64,000 bases of DNA from Clostridia bacterium (lineage in GTDB: Bacteria; Bacillota; Clostridia; TANB77; CAG-508), in assembly GCA_017939755.1 (NCBI GenBank), contig JAGBAJ010000064.1:7023-71022 (forward strand). The letters run 5' to 3'. A program made the position numbers and the translations under genes. Below the pieces are notes generated by a model. That model made no database searches. It was not told where the DNA came from and worked only from the letters and a program-made list of their open reading frames with translations. Positions 22,963 to 57,267 of the stretch are shown one piece after another. Every line of letters starts with the position of its first letter. Position 1 is the stretch's first letter.

Positions 22963-23100
22963 CTAAACAATAATATTGAAAATTGTTATAGTTATATAAA
23001 TCTATATTTATGTTACAAATTTGTTAAATCTATATTACATTTTTATAATAAATATTGACATATATTGAAATATATATAAAATAATAGTAGAGTTTAATTG

Positions 23101-23261
23101 TTATATATTAGGAAAATCATACTGACTTTTCCTAATATATAACAAAGGCTTCGCCGAAAACGGATGCACATCGATTAGCCGTGCGCAACGAAGTTAGCTA
23201 CGGATAATACATGCGCCGAACAAATTGACTGAAAAAATCAAAGATTTTTTCAGATTTGTTC
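23101..23261 (+). repeat. mosaic repeat family B, copy B3 (compact reference copy)
   Basis: A 16-bp hairpin TTATATATTAGGAAAA..TTTTCCTAATATATAA, CATCGATTAGCCGTGCGCAACGAAGTTAGCTACGGATAATACATG, and a 44-nt palindrome GAACAAATTGACTGAAAAAATC-aaa-GATTTTTTCAGATTTGTTC. It ends 13 nt before the rsmD ATG. Confidence 0.8.
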
Positions 23262-43322: not shown

Positions 43323-43348
43323 GATGAAATATTTATAGTAAGATATGA

Positions 43349-43549
43349 TTTTTTATACATCAGGAAAGTCATACTGACTTTTCCTAATGTATAAAAAAGG
43401 TTTCGCGAAAACAGATGCACATCGATTAGCCGTGTACAACGAAGTTAGCTACGGATAATACATGAGCCTAACAAATGCACACAAAATTCATTTCATAAAT
43501 TTTGGCGCAGAACAAATTCACGGAAAATCGGAGATTTTCCGATTTGTTC
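43349..43549 (+). repeat. mosaic repeat family B, copy B4
   Basis: Same module order as B3 plus the CACACAAAATT..AATTTTGGCGC module. The terminal hairpin is GAACAAATTCACGGAAAATC..GATTTTCCGATTTGTTC. Abuts the stop codon of the minus-strand gene at 43550. Confidence 0.8.
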
Positions 43550-44614
43550 TTAAAATAGCCCAAGTATTTTTTCAGTAGAAAACTCATTTAGTTCGTATGT
43601 TGAATTGTAAATTTTTAATATATTGTCGTCATTACATTCAATTTCTTCAGAAAACTTCTGTACAATAAATATGCAATCTGTAAGTGATAATGAGTTCTTT
43701 TCAAGCCATTTACAGAAGAACATTGAATGTAAGGCAGCTACAGAAATAGCCATAAATTTTACTTTTGAAAGAGCATCTTCATCATAAACAGCATCTAAAA
43801 AGTATCTGTAGATAAAATATGTAGAAATATTTTCAAGGTATTTTTCAAGCTCGTGGGTTTCAACTATAAATTTACTAAATTCATTTTGATTTTCTTTTAT
43901 TATTTGCTTACAATCTTTTAAGTAGTTAGGCCAATTTTGGTCATTTGGTATAAGAGTTCGAAGAAAATCAAAAATAAAAGAGATATCTGATTTGGAATAG
44001 TTAGTAACCGAGAATATTTCTTCATTATCCATCATATTAAAATCAATATTTTGTTGTAAAGTGTGTGCATACCAAACAATATCTTTTATTCTTGAAAAAA
44101 TGTCTATTGATGTATCTGAAAGATATTTAAATATTTTTGCTCTAGCTATACGTAAGTAAGAATATAGCTCTTTGTTGTACTTACAATGTACGAAAGTATT
44201 TGTCTCTACTTTATATGTGTAAAATGGAGTTGACTCAGATAAAATAATTCTGGCAGCTTCTTCGCAATAAAGTCCAAGACCACATTCAATTACATCGTTA
44301 AAACACTGATAAAAACGCGGATGTTCACTACAAATTTGACACAAATGCTCTTCACCAAGATTTATATAAATATCACATAAATTTTTACTGTTTAAAAATG
44401 GACACCTACCATCAGGCTTTAAGATGAAATGTGAAGGCGGCGTAATTTCAATTCCTTTATGAAGCTTATCACCCAAAACACCGGAAACGGATTTATAATA
44501 TTTGATGGATTCTTCATCGATGTCGATTTCCCAACCAGCTGCACAGCAATTATTGTGACACCTATCTGCAATACATTTAAAATTTTTATAATAAGATGGA
44601 TAACATTTAATCAT
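43550..44614 (-). CDS. FliB-family Cys-rich protein (flagellin lysine-N-methylase-like)
   Basis: N-terminal Cys cluster FKCIADRCHNNCCAAGWEIDID and a second cluster RCPFLNSKNLCDIY...CQICSEHPRF. No flagellar genes are nearby. Confidence 0.75.
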   Translation of the reverse strand: MIKCYPSYYKNFKCIADRCHNNCCAAGWEIDIDEESIKYYKSVSGVLGDKLHKGIEITPPSHFILKPDGRCPFLNSKNLCDIYINLGEEHLCQICSEHPRFYQCFNDVIECGLGLYCEEAARIILSESTPFYTYKVETNTFVHCKYNKELYSYLRIARAKIFKYLSDTSIDIFSRIKDIVWYAHTLQQNIDFNMMDNEEIFSVTNYSKSDISFIFDFLRTLIPNDQNWPNYLKDCKQIIKENQNEFSKFIVETHELEKYLENISTYFIYRYFLDAVYDEDALSKVKFMAISVAALHSMFFCKWLEKNSLSLTDCIFIVQKFSEEIECNDDNILKIYNSTYELNEFSTEKILGLF

Positions 44615-44749: not shown

Positions 44750-44777
44750 TTGGAAAAAAGTAAATATATGATAGAAT
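44750..44777 (+). promoter_or_regulatory. candidate sigma-A promoter for cdd; the transcript would include repeat C1 as its 5' UTR
   Basis: TTGGAA - 16 nt - TAGAAT. Confidence 0.45.
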
Positions 44778-44794: not shown

Positions 44795-44961
44795 GGAGGG
44801 AATTAGTTTGAAAATAATTACAATTTTGACAGCGTCAATATTCATTAAAAACGTGGTTACATACAGAAAGTATGCGTCCTTACCTTTTTAATGAACATTT
44901 CCTTGTCAAAATTTAATTCTTTCCAAACTATGTGTGCCTTTTAGAAAGGAATGAATTTTTT
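44795..44961 (+). repeat. structured repeat family C, copy C1 (5' UTR of cdd)
   Basis: Differs from C3 at about 5 positions over ~157 nt. A long interrupted hairpin is followed by an SD-masking helix, ending at the cdd ATG. Confidence 0.85.
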
Positions 44962-45348
44962 ATGAATGAAGAAATTAAATTAGCGCAAATGGCTAGGATG
45001 AATGCCTATGCACCAACTACAAATTATAAAGTTGGTGCCATTCTTAGAACAAAGACTGGGAAAATTTATACAGGTTGCAATGTAGAAAATAATGGAATTC
45101 AATCAATTTGTGCAGAGCGTGTTGCTTTTGTTAAAGCTATATCAGAAGGTGAGAAGGAGTTCGAATGTATAACAGTTGTTGGAGGACCAGCAGGAAAAAA
45201 GCCAAATAAAGAATGTGTTCCATGTGGATATTGTAGACAATTTATGAGCGAATTTGTCGATGAAGAATTTAGGATAAACACAGTAGAGGGAGATAGTCTA
45301 AGACAATACACAATGCAAGATTTATTACCATTTAGTTATAAGTTCTAA
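44962..45348 (+). CDS. cdd: cytidine deaminase
   Basis: Zinc motifs CAERVAF and PCGYCRQF. The true start is the ATG at 44962; the 10 upstream codons in the track (MCLLERNEFF) are repeat C1 sequence. Confidence 0.92.
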   Translation: MNEEIKLAQMARMNAYAPTTNYKVGAILRTKTGKIYTGCNVENNGIQSICAERVAFVKAISEGEKEFECITVVGGPAGKKPNKECVPCGYCRQFMSEFVDEEFRINTVEGDSLRQYTMQDLLPFSYKF

Positions 45349-49694: not shown

Positions 49695-49830
49695 AATTTG
49701 TTCTTCAATAGGAAAGTAACACTTTCCTATTGAAGAAAGGGCTACGCCAGAACAAATGCACACAAAATATATGAAATAAATTTTGGCGCCGAACAAATTC
49801 ACGAAAAATCTTCGATTTTCCGATTTGTTC
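49694..49830 (+). repeat. mosaic repeat family B, copy B5 (lacks the CATCGATTAGCC module)
   Basis: Hairpin CTTCAATAGGAAAGT..ACTTTCCTATTGAAG, the CACACAAAAT..ATTTTGGCGC module, and a terminal GAACAAATTCACGAAAAATC..GATTTTCCGATTTGTTC. Confidence 0.75.
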
Positions 49831-49866
49831 TTTAGCGCAGAGGCAATTTGGCAAGCATTACCTAAG

Positions 49867-51864: not shown

Positions 51865-52860
51865 ATGGAGGAAGAAAATATATCAAAAATATCTGAACTT
51901 GAATTACAAAAATGTAACGAGATTATAACAAAAATACAAAACTATTATAGTGAAAAAATGGTTGGTCAATATAGACTAAAAGTATCATTATTGGCAGCTG
52001 TAATTGCCAATGGACACATTTTATTAGAATCTGTTCCAGGTTTAGCAAAAACTACTGCTGCAAAAGTATTAACAGAAGCAGTATCTGGTCAATTTTCTAG
52101 AATTCAGTGTACACCGGATTTGTTACCAAGTGATATAGTTGGTACACAAACATTTAATTATGCTACAAATACTTTTGAAACAAAACTAGGTCCCGTGTAT
52201 GCAAATTTTGTTTTGTTAGATGAAATTAATAGATCTAGTGCAAAAACACAAAGTGCTATGCTAGAGGCAATGCAAGAAGGGCAAGCAAGTATTGGTGGTC
52301 AAATATATAAAATGCCAGAGGTATTCATTGTCATAGCAACACAAAATCCAATAGAGCAAGAAGGTACATATATGCTTGCAGAAGCTCAGTTAGATAGATT
52401 TTTATTAAAGGAAAAATTAGATTATCCAACAAAGAGCGAAGAATTAGAAATTTTAAATAGAATAGAAAAAGATGTATTCAGTCAAAGCAAACCTGTATTA
52501 GACTTAAAAAGCATTACTTATTTACAAAATGTTGCCAAAAAGGTCTATATAGATGACTCTATAAAGAAATATATTGTTGATATAATTGATGCAACAAGAA
52601 ATCCTTCAAATGTAATTTCAGAAGATTTAGCTCAGTATGTTACATTGGGGGCGAGTACAAGAGGTGCAATTGCTTTTATGGAAGTTGCTAAAGCAGTTGC
52701 ATTAATAAATGGAAGAAGTTACGTTACCCCAGACGATATTAAATCATTAAGATATAGCGTTCTAAGGCATAGAATATCACTTAGTTATGCCGCAATTGCG
52801 GATAACGTAAGTGTTGAAACAATAATTGATGCTATATTTGGAGCGATACCTACACCATGA
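51865..52860 (+). CDS. MoxR-family AAA+ ATPase
   Basis: Walker A ESVPGLAKT, Walker B FVLLDEINR and sensor region ATQNP. 331 aa. Confidence 0.93.
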   Translation: MEEENISKISELELQKCNEIITKIQNYYSEKMVGQYRLKVSLLAAVIANGHILLESVPGLAKTTAAKVLTEAVSGQFSRIQCTPDLLPSDIVGTQTFNYATNTFETKLGPVYANFVLLDEINRSSAKTQSAMLEAMQEGQASIGGQIYKMPEVFIVIATQNPIEQEGTYMLAEAQLDRFLLKEKLDYPTKSEELEILNRIEKDVFSQSKPVLDLKSITYLQNVAKKVYIDDSIKKYIVDIIDATRNPSNVISEDLAQYVTLGASTRGAIAFMEVAKAVALINGRSYVTPDDIKSLRYSVLRHRISLSYAAIADNVSVETIIDAIFGAIPTP

Positions 52861-53726
52861 TAATGGATTACATCACAAAAATAAAAGCAAATATATCAAT
52901 ATATTCAAATAAAAAAACAATGAATGTTTTAGATGGTTCATATAGATCTATATATAAGGGCCGTAGTATGAACTTTGAAGATTTACGAGAATACGTTATG
53001 GGGGATAATGTTAAAGATATTGATTGGAAAGCTTCTGCAAGAAGCGGAAATTTGCTAGTTAGACAATTTATAGCAGAAAAGAAACATAACATAATGATAG
53101 TTATGGATACAGGAAAAAAGATGTTGGCAGATACAAAGCTAAATGAGAGCAAGAGCAATGTTGCTCTTATGTCAGCAGGTACCATTGCATATTTAGCTAA
53201 TAAAAATGGTGATTATGTTGGATCTGTATATGGAAAAAATAATAAAATAACGTATTTTCCATTTAAATCAGATTTAAATAGCATAGAAAAAATACTTACT
53301 AGCTATAACAAAGACATTCAGACATCTAGTGAGTCTTCTTTGCAGCAGTCATTAGAATATATAAGCAAATATGTAAAAAAGAAAATGATAATTTTTGTAA
53401 TTACAGATATTGATGGAATACAAAATGTTCAAGAAAGAACCTTAAAAAATTTAACAACCATGCACGATGTGTTATTTGTCAATATTACTGATGCAGATAT
53501 AACAAATAATATGGCTTTTGATGTAGAGCGTGAATTATACATACCAAAGCTTATATTTAGTGATAAAAAACTTCACGAATTAGAGAGCAAGTTAAAAGAG
53601 CAAATTTATAAGAATTGGGAAAATAAATTAAAAAGATATGGTATTTTTATGATTTCATTAAATTCAAACAAGGAAATACCGACAAAGGTAATAGAATTAC
53701 TAGAAAGGCATAGGGTTGGAAAGTAA
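52857..53726 (+). CDS. DUF58 domain protein
   Basis: Motif DLREYVMGDNVKDIDWKASARSGNLLVRQF. ATGA overlap with the moxR stop. Confidence 0.9.
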   Translation: MIMDYITKIKANISIYSNKKTMNVLDGSYRSIYKGRSMNFEDLREYVMGDNVKDIDWKASARSGNLLVRQFIAEKKHNIMIVMDTGKKMLADTKLNESKSNVALMSAGTIAYLANKNGDYVGSVYGKNNKITYFPFKSDLNSIEKILTSYNKDIQTSSESSLQQSLEYISKYVKKKMIIFVITDIDGIQNVQERTLKNLTTMHDVLFVNITDADITNNMAFDVERELYIPKLIFSDKKLHELESKLKEQIYKNWENKLKRYGIFMISLNSNKEIPTKVIELLERHRVGK

Positions 53727-53872
53727 TTACAATTTTGGCTATGTCAAATTTCATTTAAAACGCGATTACATACAACGAGTATGCGCCCTTGCCTTTTAAA
53801 TGAAATTTTCCTTGCCAAAATTTAATTCCTTTCCAACTGGATTTATGCCTTGAGGAAGGAATAAGATTGAAA
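53714..53872 (+). repeat. structured repeat family C, copy C2 (intercistronic, DUF58 / small TM gene)
   Basis: A diverged copy that retains all helices through compensatory changes. It overlaps the last codons and stop of the DUF58 gene. Confidence 0.8.
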
Positions 53873-56392: not shown

Positions 56393-57100
56393 ATGAAAAA
56401 AACTCGCAAAGTTCATACCATAATTTGTAGTATACTCATATTGTTACTAGTTGTAATTTTATTTTTTTACATATTAAATGAGATTTTTATTTCAAATTAT
56501 GAAAAAAATGAATACAATAATAAAACATTGGAAGTGTTGAAAATGGTAAATGTTTATCAGCCATATATCGCACACTACAATAATGGTAATAGATTATATA
56601 AATTAGGAGATCATAAAGAAGCAATAAATGAATACAAAAGAGCATTAGAACTATTTCCACCAGAAAAGAAAGAATGCTCTATTAGAATAAATTTAGCTTT
56701 AGCTATGATTAATAATATAGAAAATGAATCTGAACCAAATGTGGAAGATATTTTAGATGTATTAGCTGAAGCAAAAGAAGTCCTATGCGAAGGTGGTTGT
56801 GCCAATAGAGATAATAATAAAGGACATAGCAAAAAGGCAGAGCAACTAAAAGAAGATATTGAAGAATATGAAGAAAAATTAAAAAAACAACAGAAAGAAT
56901 CGAAAGATGATAAGGAAAATAAAAAAGATAAGGATAAAGATGATTCACAAGATGACGATAACAACAAAGATGATGAACTAAAAAGAAAAGAAAAGCAGAT
57001 AAAAGAGCTACAAAAACAAAGTAATAAATCCCGTCAACAAGACGTAGGTTCAGTTAAAGATAGCAATTCCTATGAGTATTATTCGGGGAAAAAATGGTAA
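56393..57100 (+). CDS. TPR-repeat membrane protein with charged C-terminal tail (BatC-like)
   Basis: N-terminal TM, a TPR (YNNGNRLYKLGDHKEAINEYKRALELFP) and a K/D/E-rich tail. Confidence 0.8.
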   Translation: MKKTRKVHTIICSILILLLVVILFFYILNEIFISNYEKNEYNNKTLEVLKMVNVYQPYIAHYNNGNRLYKLGDHKEAINEYKRALELFPPEKKECSIRINLALAMINNIENESEPNVEDILDVLAEAKEVLCEGGCANRDNNKGHSKKAEQLKEDIEEYEEKLKKQQKESKDDKENKKDKDKDDSQDDDNNKDDELKRKEKQIKELQKQSNKSRQQDVGSVKDSNSYEYYSGKKW

Positions 57101-57103
57101 TTT

Positions 57104-57267
57104 AGGAGGTAGTTTGAAAATAATTACAATTTTGACAGCGTCAATATTCATTAAAAACGCGGTTACATACAGAAAGTATGCGCCCTTACCTTTTTAATGA
57201 ACATTTCCTTGTCAAAATTTAATTCTTTCCAAACTATGTGTGCCATTTAGAAAGGAATGGTTTTTTT
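57104..57267 (+). repeat. structured repeat family C, copy C3 (between the TPR gene and the HExxH gene)
   Basis: Near-identical to C1. It starts 4 nt after the TPR stop and ends at the ATG at 57268. Confidence 0.85.

Follow-up and report, generated by a model that had tools for sequence, protein, structure and literature searches.

The window analysed here, a stretch of 64,000 nucleotides (nt) from a Clostridia bacterium (contig JAGBAJ010000064.1), carries in front of several of its genes copies of a hairpin-forming repeat termed Family C. A covariance model built from 113 family members returned exactly three matches in the window, C1, C2 and C3, all on the + strand, with scores between 135 and 150 bits (137 for C1, 150 for C2 and 136 for C3; E-values from 1e-24 to 1e-26); the reverse strand of these places scored 60-70 bits. 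At the 3' end of every full copy the next open reading frame (ORF) begins with an ATG, at 44962, 53873 and 57268, respectively, and the gene 3' of C1 is cdd (PF00383). The copies thus lie where the original prediction, made by reading the DNA letters, had put them, on the same strand and each with a start codon at its end. Within 44804-44964, C1 and C3 differ at 5 positions, the number that had been estimated, and share the stretch from TAGTTTG through to the ATG; C2 is approximately 77% identical to C1 and lies near the family consensus. Family C is a clade-wide, dynamic palindromic repeat at gene boundaries that leaves no target-site duplication (TSD), and about half of its copies carry a module resembling a ribosome-binding site (RBS) which directly abuts the start codon.

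Each full copy in the window consists of a palindromic core and a 3' module (Table 1). The description of the element as a hairpin proved right, but the palindrome is longer than first drawn and in C1 spans 44806-44928. The TAA stop codon of the ORF at 52857-53726 sits in the 5' arm of C2 (53724-53726), and the TAA stop codon of the gene upstream of C3 lies at 57098-57100. A fourth place, C4, had been taken for a related copy holding the 3' module only. It is related, but it retains remnants of both arms in addition to a module of the form ..TATGTGAGCCTTT[10-nt insert]GAGAAAGGAACGAATTTTAAC; its local alignment score of 55 compares with 24 +/- 4.4 (maximum 40) for shuffled sequences and stays under nhmmer significance.

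Table 1. Positions of Family C copies and adjoining features in the window. SD, Shine-Dalgarno sequence.
Feature	Position	Strand	Description
Candidate sigma-70-type promoter	44750..44777	+	TTGGAA-16-TGaTAGAAT; 5' of C1; from a consensus scan, pattern match only
C1 orphan SD	44795..44800	+	GGAGGG; 7 nt 5' of element TTG; looks like the native cdd RBS, now parted from the ATG
C1 palindromic core	44806..44928	+	GTTTG...CAAAC; arms ~25 nt; apex CATAC-AGAAA-GTATG; TTG at 44808-44810
C1 3' module	44929..44961	+	TATGTGTGCCTTTTAGAAAGGAATGAATTTTTT; SD-like AGAAAGGAAT at 44943-44952; cdd start codon (44962-44964) directly after
C2 palindromic core	53715..53837	+	Close to family consensus
C2 3' module	53838..53872	+	..TTTATGCCTTGAGGAAGGAATAAGATTGAAA; then ATG 53873
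C4	56320..56392	+	Decayed, internally deleted; then ATG 56393
C3 orphan SD	57104..57109	+	AGGAGG; 4 nt 5' of element TTG
C3 palindromic core	57112..57234	+	Only 2 core differences from C1 (57160, 57183)
C3 3' module	57235..57267	+	With AGAAAGGAAT; then ATG 57268

An exact-pattern scan of one-genome-per-species contigs yielded at least 117 tiles (8 kb around the copies). In the window and these tiles, nhmmer found at least 119 hairpin-covering copies from at least 59 species-level gut Clostridia assemblies. All scan matches except two chance ones came from 59 assemblies labelled uncultured Clostridia, Clostridium or Eubacteriales, and the carrier assemblies originated from the gut of human, chicken, rabbit, goat and mouse as well as from rumen. 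A second scan, made with the other arm, added at least 89 copies in metagenome contigs, giving at least 208 in total; a separate metagenome scan for the variant specific to C1 and C3 found nothing. There was no Family C match in GenBank phages, PLSDB plasmids or IMG/VR, Rfam gave no family at the copies at gathering thresholds or at E up to 10 (noise only), and a literature search for the arm sequences returned no paper. Among intergenic palindromic repeats, Family C is best classed as a family not described before, and the phylum and lineage that carry it have no described example of this kind. Many genome tiles end at Family C copies, the repeat breaking short-read assemblies; two independent assemblies (L120:1-53 and L122:1-53, orthologues of window 57215-57267) begin inside the element, 53 nt before the gene.

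The unit is a non-coding, imperfect palindrome of about 123 nt, or about 160 bases together with the module. The consensus core reads GTTGAAAAATAATTACAATTTTGGC...GCCAAAATTTAATTCTTTTCCAAC, the arms of about 25 nt are more than 90% conserved, and all arm matches pair up within 250 nt. The apex is variable and divides the family into two subfamilies, AAAACGCGGTTACATAC-loop-GTATGCGCCCTTGCCTTTT and GAAATTTAATCAACGTAC-loop-GTACGCCTCATAAATTTC, which differ in sequence and both form hairpins. In L093, L002, L005, L004, L060, L006 and L088 an extra GCGCAGTGGCGAA-like segment replaces GTCAAA in the 5' internal loop, which suggests a further sub-lineage or a micro-insertion. Moreover, Family C copies hold a nested second element, about 50 nt long and with a GC-rich stem (..CATACTGAGGCTGTAACAAGCAAAGCTTTAACAGCCTCAG..), at L089:5875-5945 and L106:6490-6530, and also in L137, L146, L194, L221, L230, L233 and L239. 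It recurs at two spots, one on the apex's 5' side and one in the 3' internal loop (TTTTC^CTTGCC), and looks like another small mobile hairpin that would target Family C. The window holds further repeats of its own: 23089-23235 resembles 43341-43486 (82-85%) and 43470-43551 resembles 49751-49832 (88%), and hairpins within them, at 43345-43402 and 23093-23150, are weakly matched by the Family C model.

Covariation was assessed over 113 distinct copies. Standard pairs occupied 96.5% of the cells, compared with 89.1% in shuffled alignments, and double changes occurred at 21 of the 32 consensus pairs where 10.8 were expected; none of 500 shuffles reached any of the observed pairing measures. Sliding the partner by 1-3 columns reduced pairing to 30-52%. 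The outermost pairs covary too, appearing as GGTTG/CAACC, AGTTG/CAACT, GTTTG/CAAAC and GATTG/CAATC. The palindrome is therefore maintained by compensatory change. The original prediction, which had proposed such a test over collected copies, had concluded the same from C2, and both double changes that it named, TTTTGACA/TGTCAAAA to TTTTGGC/GCCAAAA and TTCATTAAAAA/TTTTTAATGAA to TTCATTTAAAA/TTTTAAATGAA, are present there and typical of the family. Its basic description, a portable, multi-copy hairpin with an SD-like sequence at start codons and with pairing kept by compensatory change, holds for Family C.

The identity of the folded strand turned out differently from what had been proposed. RNA folding of the 113 copies gave a mean of -32.4 kcal/mol for the gene-sense strand and of -44.3 kcal/mol for its complement, a gap of about 12 kcal/mol, and the complement was the more stable strand in 112 of them as well as in 87 of the 89 metagenome copies that served as a replication set (199 of 202 overall). 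The gene-sense strand folds worse because the hairpin contains conserved asymmetries, namely an A.C at column 12:146 (75 of 113 copies), a C.A in TTTCA/TAAAA, a bulged C and a U.C mismatch; of these, the A.C and C.A read as G.U on the complement. At paired columns, the sporadic departures comprised 36 G.U and 42 A.C, G.U being no commoner. Since selection for an RNA fold should tolerate G.U but not A.C, pairing is maintained, but not visibly as + strand RNA. Two C-to-T differences between C1 and C3, at 44854 and 44877, do give G.U pairs, as had been noted; they are private to C1, however, and the conclusion drawn from them, that the + strand RNA is the folded species, did not hold in view of the folding energies and of the departures listed above. 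These data bear on one alternative explanation, according to which Family C would be a structured cis-regulatory leader (a thermosensor, a processing site or a riboswitch-like element) selected for the fold of its + strand RNA. The strong covariation and the two G.U pairs of C1 are what such a leader would show, and a long interrupted mRNA duplex would be a plausible substrate of RNase III; the weaker folding of the sense strand and the lack of preference for G.U over A.C speak against it.

The position of the copies relative to genes was tabulated, as the original prediction had proposed, and is clearly non-random. All copies are intergenic. Co-orientation of the downstream gene is seen in 96 cases versus 16 (p = 4e-15), in 70 versus 11 in the metagenome set and in 42 versus 11 among hairpin-only copies alone; 14% of the copies are antisense to genes. 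GC skew in the 8-kb tiles tracks gene direction and antisense copies oppose both, so that replication and transcription are not separable as the cause of orientation. Several genes lie between successive copies, and the flanking housekeeping genes stand in conserved order. The downstream genes are unrelated to each other: besides cdd they include dapF-, xth- and pyruvate kinase-like genes (all but cdd recognised from N-terminal sequences only) and unknowns.

Two types of copies were distinguished. Type I, to which 60 of the 119 copies and all three in the window belong, has the 3' module followed directly by the start codon, with 33-34 nt between hairpin end and ATG in most copies. These elements have a native-looking SD on one side and the start codon on the other, and a TTG of the element occupies the place where the start codon would be. 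An upstream SD (GGAGG, AAGGAG and the like) precedes 45 of 56 type I copies versus 8 of 54 type II copies (p = 2e-12) and in type I lies 3-7 nt before the element TTG, where the spacing of native RBSs has its mode at 6. Type II consists of the hairpin only. In 39 of 48 cases its 5' end falls between -12 and +8 nt relative to the stop codon of the gene upstream, and type II copies with a divergent left neighbour lie 13-29 nt from the start of that gene, directly against its RBS (9 of 9). In 22 copies a stop codon is located inside the element, either its own TGA (in GTTGA) or TAA (in AATAATT), C2 being one of them. ORF calling by machine runs all three downstream genes of the window into the element, from GTG or TTG codons at 44932, 53867 and 57238; automatic annotation behind such copies is likely to mis-set start codons, with ORFs extended into the element from GTG or TTG.

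When neighbouring gene pairs were compared across loci, many orthologous junctions turned out to hold the element in one species but not in another; only the element of about 150 nt varies there. In L029 the junction is filled (155 nt), whereas in L099 it is empty and measures 13 nt (tagGGGTGAATAAAAAatg); the inserted DNA takes in the module and there is no TSD. Further filled and empty sets are L002 versus L036, L011 and L049; L034 versus L010 and L056; L058 versus the window itself and L078; L108 versus L068 and L083; and L094 versus L092. The comparison with orthologous genes that lack the insertion, which had been proposed for the leader, thus yielded both states. L093 and L069 form another clean presence/absence pair, with flanks 89-93% identical. 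In this pair (L093:2169-2340 versus L069:3906-3937) about 15 nt of diverged target (AGTCGGAAAGGATTGA) flank the hairpin on both sides, and the duplication keeps the C-terminus of the upstream gene and the SD of the downstream gene; it is the only TSD-like case seen. For C1 and C3, an exact-protein look-up for empty sites gave nothing but the arrangement already seen in the window and contigs that break at the element.

Filled junctions also change in content. The same junction can hold subfamily A in some species and subfamily B in another (L029 group versus L059), and the hairpin can be flipped in place, with the SD region downstream unchanged in L108 versus L116 and with a further flip in L225 versus L133. 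Two deletion alleles were found with flanks at least 95% identical: L044 is full where L058 has the 5' arm and module only, the module being the part that is kept, and L225 is full where five samples keep a solo, flipped arm. Tandem arrays and internally deleted minis (basal stem or 5' arm plus module) are also present. Head-to-tail arrays of two or three hairpins with linkers of 11-20 nt were seen at L015:3699-3961, in L001/L010 (adjacent tiles of one contig), and at L038:7145-7334, L046:3615-3849 and L088:1117-1329; strain alleles have apparently lost one array unit via recombination between arms in L026 versus L236 and L037 versus L070. Where orthologous junctions are filled, identity amounts to 85-94% in the spacer with the element, compared with 64-81% at third codon positions of the flanking genes; the slow divergence of the element reflects either purifying selection or gene conversion between copies.

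These positional data complete the case on the RNA leader. Location in a 5' untranslated region (UTR) or between cistrons and co-orientation with genes would suit it, whereas the antisense copies, the hairpins flipped in place, the unrelated downstream genes, the orthologues without the element and the lack of an Rfam match would not; we regard this explanation as very unlikely. A gene-specific regulatory leader, as considered in the original prediction, is likewise unlikely, since the genes are unrelated, orthologues lack the element and half of the copies have no module and lie off start codons. The alternative offered there that comes closest to the data is a transposable element of the miniature inverted-repeat type (MITE) that hijacks or creates RBSs.

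The module, the part of type I that contacts the gene, has the consensus C(C/T)AGATTTGTGCCTTAAGAAAGGAATGAGATTAAAA and a length of about 33 nt; it reads GTGCCTT..AGAAAGGAAT, followed by 11-12 nt and the ATG. For comparison, 723 genes without an element nearby served as the native RBS reference. Their spacer between SD and start codon has its mode at 6 nt, and they use mostly GGAGG or AGGAG, with GAAAGGAAT in 5% and GCCTT in 1%; genes behind the element have a spacer mode of 11-12 nt, with GAAAGGAAT in 30% and GCCTT in 22%. The native spacing and the native preference for GGAGG/AGGAG rule out that the module is simply the ordinary RBS of the clade. A hidden Markov model of the module never found it without at least a remnant of the basal stem or 5' arm. 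A long TSD, of which the upstream SD and the module would be the two target copies, was ruled out by tests of cognate against permuted flanks; these revealed no TSD (p = 0.26, 0.10 and 0.91).

The original prediction had postulated a dedicated helix that masks the SD of the module. With the hairpin closed, the predicted probability that the module SD is unpaired is 0.48, compared with 0.55 for native RBSs, and masking (0.23) appears only with the 5' arm kept from pairing. Unrelated native RBSs grafted behind the hairpin behave alike, dropping from 0.44 to 0.29 when the 5' arm is opened. Because of this similar drop, the complementarity is largely generic, a purine-rich SD facing a pyrimidine-rich arm, and a dedicated masking helix is not supported. 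A possible outer helix between the upstream SD and GCCUU of the module was marginal (p = 0.03) and is accounted for by the outermost covarying stem pair. An outward-facing promoter, TTGTCA-17-AACTAT, had also been proposed. These hexamers exist in C1 and C3, but the second fits TATAAT at 3 of 6 positions, the promoter scan calls neither, and they are not conserved in the family (consensus CCAACCAGATTT). The candidate at 44750-44777 is the better one; it is a pattern match from a consensus scan that found 3 sites where 2.9 were expected. C1 would lie inside the 5' UTR of cdd if this promoter were used.

A further alternative assigns the hairpin a role in translation. As an exapted translational device, type I would load ribosomes from the upstream SD at the element TTG, and translation of a short frame would melt the hairpin and set re-initiation at the SD and ATG of the module, either by coupling or by negative feedback of the freed 3' arm on the SD. 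The retention of the upstream SD in 75-80% of type I copies at 3-7 nt from the TTG, close to the native mode, is in favour of it, and TTG serves as start codon in 77 of 723 genes of these genomes. The predicted drop in accessibility of the module SD from 0.48 to 0.23 on opening the 5' arm, the slightly better conservation of type I hairpins than of type II, and the slower change of orthologous copies than of synonymous sites also fit. However, the frame that starts at the TTG is not conserved: it varies from 3 to 60 codons, its stop lies at varied places between the 5' arm and the module, its phase changes with loop length, and in C1 and C3 it is shifted relative to the consensus by a 1-nt indel, which excludes a conserved small protein. 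Moreover, the masking is nearly reproduced by unrelated native RBSs, the type II half has neither upstream SD nor module, and there is no wobble bias on the sense strand. Taken together, we consider such a device unlikely. At one locus (L028:619-775) the TTG frame passes through element and module in frame into the pyruvate-kinase-like gene (532 codons), which would provide a 50-residue N-terminal extension if the frame were used.

A mobile origin of Family C was compared with known systems. Nearest by function are REP2 (CREN) of Neisseria and the IR-A/IR-B repeats on Borrelia plasmids, which are dispersed repeats of 120-150 bp directly 5' of unrelated ORFs, hold an RBS, have an ATG at their end and contain internal inverted repeats predicted to fold (PMC3184786). 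Type I of Family C likewise fuses a repeat-borne RBS to many genes and ends at the ATG. In contrast, REP2 has no terminal inverted repeats but two small stem-loops, a promoter and a co-regulated gene set, whereas Family C forms a single long palindrome, has conserved arms but no conserved promoter, leaves an orphan native SD upstream, has hairpin-only copies at stop codons, and belongs to another phylum without any sequence relationship.

By architecture the nearest relatives are REPINs and MITEs of the terminal inverted repeat (TIR) type. The latter comprise Correia/CREE in Neisseria, RUP in pneumococcus, ERIC/IRU in enterobacteria and bcr1 in the Bacillus cereus group; like Family C they are non-coding and 100-160 bp long, have inverted ends that fold as a hairpin, are dispersed between genes and are co-transcribed with them. 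Family C shares small size, lack of coding capacity, multiple copies, presence/absence polymorphism and TIRs with this group. TIR-type MITEs make short TSDs (e.g., TA), and a relationship to DDE insertion sequences (IS) can exist, whereas Family C has no TSD and no parent IS was found for it. None of the TIR-type MITEs named is known to bring an RBS exactly to start codons. For some of them, effects on mRNA that depend on orientation have been reported (PMC3184786).

The likeness to REPINs lies in conserved inverted arms around a less conserved spacer, many strictly extragenic copies, vertical persistence with no match in mobile vectors and the lack of an autonomous copy, none having been found for Family C in about 1.7 Mb of flanking sequence (PMC3116915, PMC3337134). 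REPINs are described mainly in Proteobacteria, are built from GC-rich REPs with a 5' GTAG-type signature, and have no RBS module or link to start codons. A strict version of this comparison, which concerns the mode of spread only and is narrower than the MITE/REPIN-like view as a whole, would have a HUH transposase (RAYT/IS200-like), present in a single copy, copy Family C in the form of a hairpin of single-stranded DNA, with the element inherited vertically. It is consistent with the conserved arms of about 25 nt and the variable apex, with the absence of TSDs, with the failure to find an autonomous version with the same arms, with restriction to a clade without matches in phages or plasmids, and with the persistence of orthologous copies across species; the conserved asymmetries (A.C, U.C and bulged C) are those expected if one DNA strand is recognised. 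Against it, a crude motif screen of 906 neighbouring proteins in the 8-kb tiles found no RAYT/IS200-like protein, the GTAG-type REP signature is missing from the AT-rich arms, typical REPINs are shorter than the element, and neither an RBS module nor siting at start codons is reported for REPINs. We hold this strict version to be possible but somewhat unlikely.

Two other kinds of repeats were considered. A site-specific recombination site such as the attC of integrons, bounding gene cassettes, would also be an imperfect palindrome of this length with conserved unpaired bases, with GTTG...CAAC ends and with one strand that folds better. In Family C, however, the GTT/AAC triplets stand at the outer and not at the inner ends of the terminal boxes, so that the inner AAC...GTT core sites are absent; instead of single-gene cassettes there are several genes between copies, the housekeeping flanks keep their order and the element alone is present or absent. 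We judge this explanation extremely improbable. In MIRUs, which are repeated directly in tandem, small ORFs bridge genes for translational coupling; MIRUs are said, with reference to Supply et al. 1997, to be small intercistronic operon repeats oriented with transcription, the ends of which overlap flanking stop and start codons. Family C is likewise found at stop and start codons and oriented with genes, but is a palindrome without conserved reading frame. Family C fits none of the known kinds exactly, because it has no TSD and no parent IS was found in the flanking sequence (MITE), no RAYT was seen and no GC-rich REP is present (REPIN), and it has TIRs but no promoter (REP2). As regards RNA leaders of the kind collected in Rfam, neither a covariation bias towards the RNA strand nor a functionally related gene set was observed.

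Overall, Family C is probably a non-coding, multi-copy, MITE/REPIN-like palindromic repeat that has settled in the short gene junctions of a clade of low-GC, uncultured gut Clostridia and carries a portable RBS. The 3' module would act as a replacement RBS, whereby an insertion that parts a gene from its own SD becomes survivable, and after the insertion the module could no longer be lost. Type I copies and the minis would accumulate because the module is irreplaceable. In the mRNA the arms would pair with each other and leave the new SD with roughly the accessibility of a normal one. Only the common orientation would deliver the RBS, and it would also place the weaker, A.C-interrupted hairpin in the transcript. 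As to copying, a single-strand (HUH/RAYT-like) or recombinational route rather than a DDE transposase is suggested by the lack of TSDs, by strand asymmetries that are conserved and by an architecture that resembles REPINs and depends on the hairpin.

Several observations weigh against a portable RBS on a mobile repeat. We infer mobility from patterns of presence and absence alone; in approximately 1.7 Mb of flanking sequence neither a mobilising gene nor a cargo-carrying version with the same arms was found. Similarly, we infer the use of the module SD from its position and from the absence of another SD. Half of the copies lie exactly at a start codon, which random insertion followed by selection explains poorly; targeting or strong differential retention is therefore required. 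The orphan SD is kept nearly as often as a working RBS (75-80% versus 89%), a hint that initiation at the element TTG may matter. A host function, and not gene conversion among copies, could be the reason for conservation above the synonymous rate. Finally, type I hairpins are slightly nearer to their subfamily consensus than type II hairpins (0.932 versus 0.908, p = 0.008), which is unexpected if type I copies are just old survivors with a neutral hairpin. The portable RBS leaves the precision at the start codon, the kept orphan SD and the undecayed type I hairpins unexplained, and for this reason the translational-control alternative stays alive.

In a bolder proposal, type I might be a start-codon-seeking mobile RBS cassette that inserts at the 5' edge of start codons, where its own TTG replaces the start codon and its module provides a new SD, weaker than the old one and with another spacing. 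From then on the host could not lose the element, and the upstream SD/TTG together with the hairpin would form a shared translational control point at which ribosome traffic on the leader sets downstream initiation. We offer this proposal as speculative and doubtful. If it were true, dozens of housekeeping genes per genome, across the whole clade, would be translated through a selfish palindrome.

For the probable MITE/REPIN-like repeat with a portable RBS, the consequences concern how such elements survive. Bacterial intergenic repeats are usually thought to persist only where they are harmless to genes. Family C persists at the most constrained site, the gap between SD and start codon, by supplying its own replacement. 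The repeat may be of use as a clade marker and as a strain-typing locus. If the module is a working RBS, a neutral or selfish insertion would turn indispensable, as in an evolutionary ratchet, and many core genes of abundant uncultured gut bacteria would initiate translation via a common repeat.

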